From NCBI RefSeq assembly GCF_055900595.2, contig NZ_CM148325.1: DNA of 64,000 nucleotides. The stretch is one strand, 5' to 3'. Positions 7,169 to 14,961 of this stretch are shown here, piece after piece. The notes below the pieces were generated by a model. It was not told the DNA's origin and made no database searches. It saw nothing but the letters and a program-made list of their open reading frames with translations. Both the position numbers and the translations under genes were made by a program. How positions within the stretch are numbered: the stretch's first letter is position 1; each line of letters begins with the position of its first letter.

Positions 7169-7798
7169 ATGATTAGGGTTGTGCTGGTGGATGACCATGT
7201 GGTGGTGCGCTCTGGCTTCGCACAGTTACTCTCTCTGGAAGACGATCTGGAGGTCATTGGTCAGTACAGTTGTGCCGCGCAGGCATGGTCGGCATTAACT
7301 CATAATGACGTTAATGTTGCCGTCATTGATATCGCCATGCCGGACGAAAATGGCCTCAGTCTGCTTAAGCGTCTGCGTGCACAAAAACCGCAATTCCGCG
7401 CCATTATTCTTAGCATTTATGACACGCCAACCTTTGTACAAAGCGCTCTGGATGCTGGTGCCAGCGGCTATTTGACCAAACGCTGTGGGCCGGAAGAGTT
7501 AGTGCAGGCGGTGCGCTCGGTCGGGATGGGCGGGCATTATCTCTGCGCCGATGCAATTCGGGCTTTACGCGGCGGCGGGCAACCCGCCCAGGCGTTGGAA
7601 ATTCTCACCCCACGAGAACGTGAAGTGTTTGATTTATTAGTCAAAGGCGACAGTGTCAAAGAGATCGCCTTTAAGCTCGAACTCAGCCATAAAACGGTAC
7701 ATGTACATCGCGCCAACGTGCTGGGAAAACTGAACTGTCATAGCACCATTGAGCTGGTGCATTTTGCACTCAATCACCATCTGCTGGCGGGGCATTAA
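7169..7798 (+). CDS. NarL/FixJ-family response regulator, UhpA-like
   Basis: 209 aa MIRVVLVDDHVVVRSGFAQLL... receiver domain plus C-terminal LuxR-type HTH; high similarity to UhpA by eye. Confidence 0.85.
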   Translation: MIRVVLVDDHVVVRSGFAQLLSLEDDLEVIGQYSCAAQAWSALTHNDVNVAVIDIAMPDENGLSLLKRLRAQKPQFRAIILSIYDTPTFVQSALDAGASGYLTKRCGPEELVQAVRSVGMGGHYLCADAIRALRGGGQPAQALEILTPREREVFDLLVKGDSVKEIAFKLELSHKTVHVHRANVLGKLNCHSTIELVHFALNHHLLAGH

Positions 7799-9339
7799 TG
7801 TCGCGTAACCTTCGTCATTGGGTGATTTCGCTGTTTATTGTGCTGGCCTGGGGAAGCGGCTGGCTGATGTTGTGGACGCTCAGCTTTTATCTGACCAATA
7901 ACGGTCAACAGGCAGTGTTATTTCTGCCGCACGGAGTTTACCTCGCTCTTCTTATTTTGCTCTCTCGCCGTTACTGGCCTGCGTTGGTGCTCCCCCCTTT
8001 GCTGATGATGTTCTGGCTGCACAGCGAGCAACTGTTGAACGGCTATCTCATGCTGGCAACGCCGGTTATTAGCCTGCTTCCTGCCATCCTTGCACAAAAC
8101 GTCTGGCACCGTTTTCCACTTTACTGGCAGCGTCTGACGTTGCTGTTAGCCTCAGTAACAGCAGCTTCATTGCTGAATACAGCCATGCTAACCCCTTTTA
8201 TGTCAGGCCCAATAATGCTGCCCGGTCTGACCTCATTTACCGGCGGCGTATTGTTGACGCCGTTTGTCTATCTCATCTTTGAGTTTCTGCGCCAGCAGCA
8301 TCGCTATCAGCTTCTGAGACTCGATACGCATAATCCCCCCTTGCGAACCTCTTTAATCATCTGGTGTAGCCTATTTTTTATTATTGGTATCGGCACCCAG
8401 ATGGTGTTGTCGCCTGAAATCGAACGCCTGCTGCTGATCGTGGTATTTCTACCCAATGTGGTCATGGCCTGGAAATTTGGCTGGCAAGGTGGCGTACTCT
8501 CGGGGCTTTTGGGCAGCATGATGATCACTATTGCCCGCCAGATTGGCGTGGGCTTTAGTAACCTGGTGGAACTGGAGATTTTTCTCGCAACCCAGGCATT
8601 GCTGGGAATTGGCCTGGGCATTGCCATCAGTCGCCAGCAACATCTGGCGCTAAACCTGCATCATTACCGTCAGCGACTGGAGGCAGAACTGGCAGCACGG
8701 CGGGCATTGGCTGAAAAGCTGATCCACACCGAGGAAGACACGCGTAAAAGCCTGGCTCGCGAGCTGCACGACGAAATCGGTCAGAACATTACCGCCATTC
8801 AGATCCAGTCGCAACTGGTGACGCGGGCACGCGATCCGGCGCAAGTTCATTCCGCAGCCAGCCAAATCAACGAACTCGCCCGCCGCATTCATCTCTCCAC
8901 CCGCCAGTTGCTGCGCCAGTTGCGGCCACCCGCGCTTGATGAACTGACATTCCGCGAAGCATTACTTCATCTGATTAATGAATTTGCCTTTAGTGAACGC
9001 GGCATTCATTGCCAGTTTACCTATCAACTAACCACCACGCCAGAAAACGAAACGGTTCGCTTTACACTGTATCGGTTATTGCAGGAGTTACTCAATAACG
9101 TCTGTAAACACGCCGAAGCCAGCGAAGTGACGATTATTCTGCGCCAGCAGGGAGAGATATTGCACCTGGAGGTCAGCGACAACGGTATAGGAATCGCCAG
9201 CGGGAAAATGACCGGATTTGGCATTCAGGGGATGCGTGAACGCGTCAGTGCCCTGGGCGGCGACTTAACGCTCGAAAAACATAACGGTACGCGAGTAATT
9301 GTTAACCTGCCCACATTTTTGCAACAAATCGCCGGATAA
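7798..9339 (+). CDS. Membrane sensor histidine kinase, UhpB-like
   Basis: 513 aa; N-terminal multi-TM region, ELHDEIGQNITAI H-box, C-terminal GFGIQGMRERVSALGG ATPase motifs; start overlaps regulator stop (TAATG). Confidence 0.85.
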   Translation: MSRNLRHWVISLFIVLAWGSGWLMLWTLSFYLTNNGQQAVLFLPHGVYLALLILLSRRYWPALVLPPLLMMFWLHSEQLLNGYLMLATPVISLLPAILAQNVWHRFPLYWQRLTLLLASVTAASLLNTAMLTPFMSGPIMLPGLTSFTGGVLLTPFVYLIFEFLRQQHRYQLLRLDTHNPPLRTSLIIWCSLFFIIGIGTQMVLSPEIERLLLIVVFLPNVVMAWKFGWQGGVLSGLLGSMMITIARQIGVGFSNLVELEIFLATQALLGIGLGIAISRQQHLALNLHHYRQRLEAELAARRALAEKLIHTEEDTRKSLARELHDEIGQNITAIQIQSQLVTRARDPAQVHSAASQINELARRIHLSTRQLLRQLRPPALDELTFREALLHLINEFAFSERGIHCQFTYQLTTTPENETVRFTLYRLLQELLNNVCKHAEASEVTIILRQQGEILHLEVSDNGIGIASGKMTGFGIQGMRERVSALGGDLTLEKHNGTRVIVNLPTFLQQIAG

Positions 9340-13903: not shown

Positions 13904-14961
13904 TGGAGCGCACTATGAGTCAGAAAAATTTTGTGGAACTGCGCAACGTCACTAAACGATTCGGCAGTAATAGGGTTATCGACAATATCAATCTCACCAT
14001 CCCACAAGGGCAAATGGTGACGCTGCTCGGTCCTTCCGGATGCGGCAAAACCACCATTCTGCGTCTGGTTGCCGGGCTGGAAAAACCGAGCGAAGGGCAA
14101 ATTTTTATAGATGGCGAAGATGTCACGCATCGTTCCATTCAGCAACGCGATATCTGCATGGTGTTTCAGTCATACGCTCTGTTCCCACATATGTCGCTGG
14201 GCGAAAACGTTGGCTATGGGCTGAAAATGCTTGGCGTGTCGCGTAGTGAAGTGAAGCAGCGGGTGAAAGATGCGCTAGCAATGGTGGATCTGGAAGGATT
14301 CGAAGACCGCTATGTCGACCAGATTTCCGGTGGTCAGCAACAGCGTGTGGCTCTGGCCCGTGCGTTGATCCTTAAGCCTAAAGTGCTGCTGTTTGATGAG
14401 CCGTTAAGTAACCTCGATGCCAACCTGCGTCGCAGCATGCGCGATAAAATCCGCGAGCTGCAAAAGCAATTTAACATCACTTCGCTCTATGTGACTCACG
14501 ATCAAAGTGAAGCTTTCGCGGTGTCCGACACCGTGTTGGTGATGAATAAAGGTCACATCATGCAGATTGGTTCACCGCAGGATCTCTATCGTCAGCCCGC
14601 CTCCCGCTTTATGGCAAGTTTTATGGGCGACGCCAACCTGTTCCCGGCGAACTTTAGCGAAGAGTATGTCGATATCTACGGTTATCGCCTGCCGCGCGCG
14701 GCGCATTTCCCGGCGCAAGGTAGCGGCACCGTCGGCGTTCGCCCGGAAGCCATCACCTTAAGCAATCACGGCGAAGAGAGTCAGCGTTGTGTTATTCGCC
14801 ATGTCGCCTACATGGGGCCGCAGTACGAAGTGACCGTAGAATGGCATGGTCAGGAGATTTTATTGCAAGTCAACGCCACCCGTTTACAGCCCGATATTGG
14901 TGAGCACTATTACCTCGAAATCCATCCTTACGGGATGTTTGTTTTAGCGGATGCGGCATAA
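13903..14961 (+). CDS. afuC: ABC transporter ATP-binding protein, AfuC/FbpC family
   Basis: 352 aa; Walker [10 protein letters not shown], signature [15 protein letters not shown], Walker B LLFDEP; TAATG overlap with afuB. Confidence 0.85.

Follow-up and report, generated by a model that had tools for sequence, protein, structure and literature searches.

Within a 64,000-nt stretch of contig NZ_CM148325.1 (NCBI RefSeq assembly GCF_055900595.2; the whole stretch is referred to as the window, with positions counted from its first letter), six intact, co-directional + strand genes occupy positions 7169–14961, flanked by tauA on the left (5904–6866, − strand) and frmR on the right (15121–15396). 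In order, they encode a NarL/LuxR-type response regulator of 209 aa (7169–7798), a histidine kinase of 513 aa with MASE1, HisKA_3 and HATPase domains (7798–9339), a UhpC-like major facilitator superfamily (MFS) protein of 434 aa belonging to the organophosphate:phosphate antiporter family (9424–10728), and an ATP-binding cassette (ABC) importer comprising the periplasmic hexose/heptose-phosphate binding protein AfuA (343 aa, 10725–11756), the fused double permease AfuB (692 aa, 11825–13903) and the TOBE-domain ATPase AfuC (348 aa, 13915–14961). The regulator and kinase genes share 1 nt (TAATG), the MFS stop codon and the afuA start codon overlap by 4 bp (ATGA), and a GGAG lies 6 nt 5' of the afuC start (ATG 13915). 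The MFS gene was assigned to ATG 9424, and not to the first ATG at 9412, which is peculiar to E. coli: ATG 9424 and the Shine-Dalgarno sequence GGAG 6 nt 5' of it (9414–9417, + strand) are alone conserved across genera. RefSeq annotates this gene from differing ATGs depending on the strain, giving proteins of 434 or 438 aa (window 9412–9424; position 3813 of the O157:H7 locus). Two long open reading frames starting with GTG, at 10437 and 11768, are over-extended versions of AfuA and AfuB. A predicted terminator-like hairpin with a 9-bp stem (AACGGTCCC/GGGACCGTT) and a weak T tract follows afuC on the + strand (14974–15003, from an RNA fold of 14956–15035).

This block is an allele of O-island 20 (OI-20) of E. 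coli O157:H7, in which FusR (Z0463), FusK (Z0462), Z0461 and AfuABC (Z0460–Z0458) are encoded in the same order (fusR-fusK-z0461-afuA-afuB-afuC) and at the same tauA-frmR site. Amino acid identities to the O157:H7 proteins are 96.2% for the regulator (WP_000621918.1, Z0463), 95.3% for the kinase (WP_000089287.1, Z0462), 99.1% for the MFS protein, 98.5% for AfuA, 98.1% for AfuB (WP_000084161.1, Z0459) and 99.1% for AfuC, with about 94.5% nucleotide identity between the two copies; the Z0463, Z0462 and Z0459 accessions in the EDL933 data set are those of the O157:H7 reference proteins. The Citrobacter rodentium counterpart of OI-20 likewise counts among the closest known systems, and, unlike the O157:H7 copy, the 100% matches to the window allele come from dog and human isolates without an O157 label. 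The locus is thus already known and of low novelty in itself, and the presence of afuABC on OI-20 beside the FusKR two-component system has been pointed out before (Sit et al. 2015). The first-pass annotation, which had described the block as a Uhp-like sensing module coupled to an AfuABC importer, overlooked both this published identity and the reported adjacency, so that its interpretation is upheld in part.

The same annotation had likened the three upstream genes to uhpA, uhpB and uhpC, a placement that is borne out by NCBIfam models and by comparison with E. coli K-12. The best model for the regulator is UhpA (NF007685; 193 bits, below the equivalog cutoff of 258), that for the kinase is UhpB (NF008649; a full-length match at 373 bits, below the cutoff of 408), and that for the MFS protein is UhpC (NF008661; 588 bits, above the cutoff of 564). 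Identities to the K-12 proteins are 48.7% (regulator and UhpA), 33.5% (kinase and UhpB) and 53.5% (MFS protein and UhpC), while against UhpT the MFS protein reaches only 29%. The three proteins are the closest paralogues of UhpA, UhpB and UhpC; family membership in the strict sense is reached by the UhpC-like protein and not by its two partners, which we regard as paralogues and not orthologues because they score below the UhpA and UhpB equivalog cutoffs. Functional residues are retained in all three. The regulator keeps the sequence context of the phospho-acceptor Asp, and its recognition helix (KTVHVHRAN) is exactly that of UhpA. The kinase shares with UhpB the conserved H-box ARELHDEIGQ and the same domain architecture (MASE1, HisKA_3; Pfam domains taken from orthologues), identity being lower in the membrane part (30%) than in the cytoplasmic one (45%). 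In UhpT and GlpT, two arginines and a lysine form the phosphate site, and the MFS protein retains the equivalents of these residues (UhpT R46, K82 and R275), together with UhpC-type residues at the positions of UhpT D388 and K391.

The downstream genes, which had been read as afuABC, are confirmed as such, and AfuA retains all five of its published ligand contacts. The protein is about 80% identical to Actinobacillus pleuropneumoniae AfuA (PDB 4R72–4R75, E = 3e-170), and alignment to 4R72 places S37, T150, H205, D206 and E229, the residues contacting glucose-6-phosphate (Sit et al. 2015, whose numbering is used), at fully conserved positions. AfuA thus has both the sugar motif (H205-D206-E229) and the contacts to phosphate (S37/T150), and with them a complete sugar-phosphate binding pocket. 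The fused two-domain permease and the TOBE-domain ATPase are encoded 3' of afuA; two permease stretches of AfuB are matched in NCBIfam, and AfuC matches the ferric-type ABC ATPase model NF008513 with 697 bits (cutoff 496). Transport of the 6-phosphates of glucose and fructose and of sedoheptulose-7-phosphate by AfuABC is known from the Actinobacillus and C. rodentium systems (Sit et al. 2015). The A. pleuropneumoniae importer has the same fused permease and the same ATPase as the block, whereas in the three Pasteurellaceae examined (Actinobacillus, Bibersteinia and Basfia) no regulator, kinase or MFS gene adjoins afuABC. In Actinobacillus and Bibersteinia, afuABC lies beside mannose-type phosphotransferase system genes and a mannose-6-phosphate isomerase gene, and Basfia carries two tandem afuA paralogues 5' of afuB (loci L089, 3675–7177; L090, 12420–16830; L091, 8001–10161). 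A second, partial copy of afuB and afuC, annotated as fbpC and a permease subunit, is found in K-12 (at about 277–278 kb) and many other E. coli. It shares about 85% identity with the block's right end (window 13555–14961), and some of these partial copies are plasmid-borne, including on an F' plasmid.

Comparison with the K-12 interval by blastn showed that homology ends at window position 6904 and resumes at 15029, so that 6905–15028 is absent from K-12 and replaces K-12 379974–385193. According to the K-12 annotation, the tauA-frmR interval there holds yaiS-ykiC-yaiP-yaiX::IS2-yaiO; what the first-pass annotation gave for K-12 (yaiS, yaiP, an insertion sequence (IS) and yaiO) was correct. 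The block is accessory in E. coli, as had been proposed, being full length in 518 of 5,426 complete genomes, with carriers including O157:H7, O55:H7, O145, O169:H41 and O157:H16 as well as dog, chicken and wastewater isolates. Reviews describe FusKR as confined to O157:H7, in contrast to this spread over E. coli of many serotypes and hosts and over many genera of Enterobacterales. Canonical uhpT is full length in 5,406 of the same 5,426 genomes, and at least 498 carriers must therefore hold both systems. The suggestion that AfuABC had taken the place of uhpT thus describes the locus, where no UhpT-like gene was found within the block and afuABC stands downstream instead, and not the genome: because uhpT is kept elsewhere, the block constitutes a second, paralogous system. 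An origin in Enterococcus (E. faecalis), proposed in a review, was rejected, the nearest relatives being cassettes of Citrobacter, Klebsiella and Enterobacter. These cassettes often also adjoin tauA, and the GC content of the block is ordinary for E. coli. The cassette is thus old in the Enterobacteriaceae and patchy in E. coli, and no recent arrival from a distant source.

We assessed how widely the sensor genes and the importer genes occur together using an AfuA scan of one genome per species, which was positive for 349 species, and compared the best 80 loci, spanning Citrobacter, Enterobacter, Klebsiella, Raoultella, Serratia, Buttiauxella, Rahnella, Erwinia, Pantoea, Brenneria, Yersinia and others. 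The order regulator-kinase-MFS-AfuA-AfuB-AfuC was found in 75 of the 80 (the other five end at the edge of a contig or stored locus) and is kept while kinase identity falls to 55%. The six genes stand in this order also in Photorhabdus and in two metagenome contigs of low GC, with the expected Pfam domains. As in E. coli, 29 of the 80 loci have tauA on their left side. The spacer between the kinase and MFS genes measures 84–90 bp in nearly every locus (84 bp in the window), and the gap between the MFS gene and afuA is −4 to +60 bp in most loci, with about 160 bp in two Yersinia.

The kinase-MFS spacer and the adjoining end of the kinase gene contain what appears to be the output promoter of the system. 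A site resembling those bound by cAMP receptor protein (CRP), AATTGTTAACCTGCCCACATTT (9297–9318, + strand; core TGTTA-N6-CCACA at 9300–9315), lies inside the 3' end of the kinase gene and keeps a constant offset in about 75 of 78 loci. Its codons are 95–100% conserved at synonymous third positions, compared with about 44–80% in most of the 30 codons upstream; this comparison is partly biased, as the loci were anchored on TGTTAA, which leaves the CCC, ACA and GTA codons unforced. Phylogenetic footprinting further revealed a 17-bp dyad, CCAGGAAAAAGTCTTAG (9340–9356, + strand; consensus CYARGAAW-N-WTTCYTRG), as a candidate site for a regulator dimer. In Buttiauxella, Erwinia, Rahnella and the low-GC contigs the dyad is perfectly palindromic. 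Its consensus has a single match in the 64-kb window, with no second copy such as one 5' of the regulator gene that would be a sign of autoregulation. The element TCTCATCC (9372–9379, + strand), near-invariant and conserved in nearly all loci, occupies the −35 region and is a candidate promoter-proximal regulator site, followed by a −10 hexamer, TATAGT (9399–9404, + strand), whose TAnnnT pattern is conserved across genera. No recognizable −35 hexamer was detected for the z0461 promoter, which is the pattern of an activator-dependent promoter and the reason why the consensus scan did not call it.

This arrangement resembles that of the K-12 uhpT promoter (PuhpT). The dyad consensus, derived from the cassette family only, has one match in the 6.5-kb K-12 uhp locus (0.03 expected), and this match falls in the uhpC-uhpT spacer, inside the UhpA region of PuhpT. 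For the exact positions of the PuhpT sites (a CRP site near −103.5 and a UhpA dyad near −64, in a promoter that lacks a −35) we have in part assumed those of the Kadner laboratory papers. The CRP site, dyad, proximal TCTCA and −10 element lie at matching distances in the two promoters (within 1 bp): measured to the start of the −10 element, the CRP centre, the dyad centre and TCTCA are at 91.5, 51 and 27 bp in the window and at 91.5, 52 and 27 bp in PuhpT, where the last element reads TCTCAGG. Secondary sources describe PuhpT as having a catabolite activator protein site centred near −103 and adjacent strong and weak UhpA sites downstream. The FusR site reported at ler was rejected as evidence for the dyad, since in a by-eye comparison its AT-rich centre alone matches.

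A separate sigma-70-like promoter, TTGCCA-16-CATGAT, was predicted by promoter scan for the regulator-kinase pair (7111–7138, + strand), and both hexamers are conserved across genera though the flanking DNA differs. It is preceded by a further conserved element, TTTTGTTAC-N9-CAT (7075–7095, + strand), recovered by aligning the regions upstream of the regulator in all genera compared.

Together, the comparative genomics and the promoter anatomy speak for a functional link between sensor and importer, and we think it probable that the block is a Uhp paralogue whose output promoter drives z0461-afuABC as one operon. In the proposed circuit, regulator and kinase would be made from the weak constitutive promoter at 7111–7138; an external phosphorylated sugar would be bound by the UhpC-like protein, which would signal to the MASE1 kinase; the phosphorylated regulator would bind both the proximal element and the dyad, the latter at about −63; and cAMP-CRP at about −103.5 would join it in switching on z0461-afuABC. 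The result would be ATP-driven, high-affinity uptake of the 6-phosphates of glucose and fructose and of sedoheptulose-7-phosphate beside the canonical UhpT antiporter. The K-12 UhpABC-UhpT system offers a close template, having the same regulator-kinase-MFS sensor order, overlapping regulator and kinase genes, a MASE1 kinase and an identical recognition helix. It differs in that protein identity is only 34–54%, that its output is the UhpT antiporter and not a binding protein-dependent ABC importer, that its inducer is glucose-6-phosphate, whereas fucose is reported for the FusKR system, and that its regulated promoter lies 3' of the sensor gene. In the window, that promoter would have been relocated 5' of the sensor MFS gene, where it would now drive the ABC importer and exert positive feedback on the sensor. 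Binding by the regulator and CRP, activation in place of repression and a sugar-phosphate signal are what we infer from this likeness.

Several observations weigh against such a circuit. The regulator and kinase miss the UhpA and UhpB equivalog cutoffs. The CRP-like site falls within a conserved protein motif (VNLPT), so that its conservation is partly coding, and the z0461 transcription start, at about 9411, is a predicted one. The spacer and PuhpT share 29 of 84 positions in an ungapped comparison, and a register other than the one anchored on the −10 element scores best; we accordingly make no claim that the two are homologous in sequence overall, and because identity is low the case for the promoter rests on element geometry and conservation, that is, on shared elements and their spacing. 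Above all, the proposal conflicts with the published signal, which is fucose, and the published sign, which is repression of z0461. Both views could coexist if loss of FusK removed a phosphatase activity or if fucose acted indirectly, and the fucose response and the repression of the enterocyte effacement locus (LEE) and z0461 in O157:H7 may be additional outputs, or another view, of the same circuit.

The published account could also be complete as it stands, with FusK sensing free fucose, FusR repressing ler, z0461 and the fuc genes, Z0461 aiding fucose import, and AfuABC being a mere neighbour with regulation of its own. Reviews and later papers describe FusK as a fucose sensor whose autophosphorylation is stimulated by fucose, report FusR binding at ler and repression of LEE, z0461 and fuc genes by FusKR, and present Z0461 as needed for optimal fucose import; in a 2026 study, LEE repression by fucose required fusKR and was abolished by fusKR deletion. 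QseB and QseF have been reported as repressors of fusKR. We nevertheless judge this account unlikely to be the whole story, since Z0461 passes the UhpC cutoff and keeps its phosphate-binding arginines, whereas fucose has no phosphate, and since the cassette is kept in genera without LEE, plant and insect associates included. The overlap of z0461 and afuA leaves no place for a promoter between them, so that separate regulation of the two at initiation is not possible, and the promoter upstream has activator geometry and no −35 element. Deletion of fusK could itself raise z0461 expression through loss of phosphatase activity, as inferred from knowledge of UhpB.

Less probable still is that sensor genes and afuABC are linked by history alone, with the regulator acting elsewhere and afuABC transcribed by constitutive read-through or, as in old annotation, under iron/Fur control. 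Cloned afuABC is functional without the sensor genes (Sit et al. 2015), afuABC stands alone in the Pasteurellaceae, and the reference list of Sit et al. includes work linking afuABC regulation in Actinobacillus to Fur. Against a purely historical association, gene order is kept down to 55% kinase identity, and the spacer is of fixed length, with conservation of the non-coding elements; a Fur box 5' of afuA is impossible in E. coli, where there is no spacer and hence no room for a Fur-controlled promoter. A scheme in which phosphorylated UhpA is the main activator of z0461-afuABC and FusKR modulates only, for which the identical FusR and UhpA recognition helices, the dyad consensus common to PuhpT and the canonical uhp locus present in nearly all carriers could be cited, seems very improbable indeed, as a dedicated regulator and kinase are kept in every genus examined, which would be unexpected if UhpA sufficed.

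Expression data from the literature give weak support to the sensor-importer link that we favour: afuB (Z0459) rises together with Z0461–Z0463 in EDL933 grown in bovine gut contents, and OI-20 was reported to be induced by mucus (Sit et al. 2015). In line with the statement in the first-pass annotation that no test of such regulation was known, our literature search found no test of afuABC regulation by the adjoining FusKR, the one searchable paper that mentions afuA and fusK together leaving regulation aside, and no expression data with sugar phosphates for the block. Neither the architecture of the promoter nor how widely the cassette occurs is described in the searchable literature, and both are new here.

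A broader proposal, which we put forward tentatively as possible rather than probable, is that FusKR, rather than being primarily a fucose sensor that enterohaemorrhagic E. coli (EHEC) acquired, supplies kinase and regulator to a Uhp paralogue that is old and Enterobacterales-wide. Z0461 would then detect a phosphorylated sugar, the ancestral direct target would be a uhpT-type, CRP-assisted z0461-afuABC promoter, and the LEE and fucose phenotypes would be secondary or indirect. Having the same DNA-reading helices and target dyads, FusR and UhpA could also cross-activate each other's promoters. FusKR is widely cited as the EHEC sensor of fucose released by the microbiota, and the 2026 study builds a therapy on it, while the AfuABC importer has been shown to aid gut colonization and transmission in C. 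rodentium. Were the proposal true, both the signal and the sign of regulation, as well as the view that EHEC imported the island recently, would have to be re-examined. As the sequence data point to precise positions for mutation and to a few candidate inducers, the circuit is directly testable.

Some observations concern the surroundings of the block. Over window 5600–16400, divergence from the O157:H7 allele is rather even (92–97% per 400 bp, tauA included; frmR 99.8%), and because of this evenness the whole tau-island region seems to be of a divergent lineage. NZ_CP098223.1, which is 100% identical over the island, carries a TnAs3 transposase, a GNAT gene, a partial catA and IS1B beside hemB (positions 1–3184 of the locus compared). 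Window 1–1984 does not align to it there, and the first 2 kb of the window are low in GC (39–47%). No relevant defence family was reported by PADLOC, and an Rfam search of 6500–15500 returned no family, the lone sub-threshold match, to a microRNA, being on the frmR operator palindrome. This long perfect palindrome, TATACTATAGGGGGGTATGC...GCATACCCCCCTATAGTATA (15044–15096), is the source of the spurious match and overlaps the frmR promoter (TTGACA-17-TAGTAT). Farther right, between the frm genes and yaiL, a tandem array at 17467–17782 comprises 3.2 copies of a 100-bp unit (93% matches) with palindromes resembling repetitive extragenic palindromic elements; the alignment to the closest complete genome is shifted by 100 bp at this place, suggesting that copy number differs.

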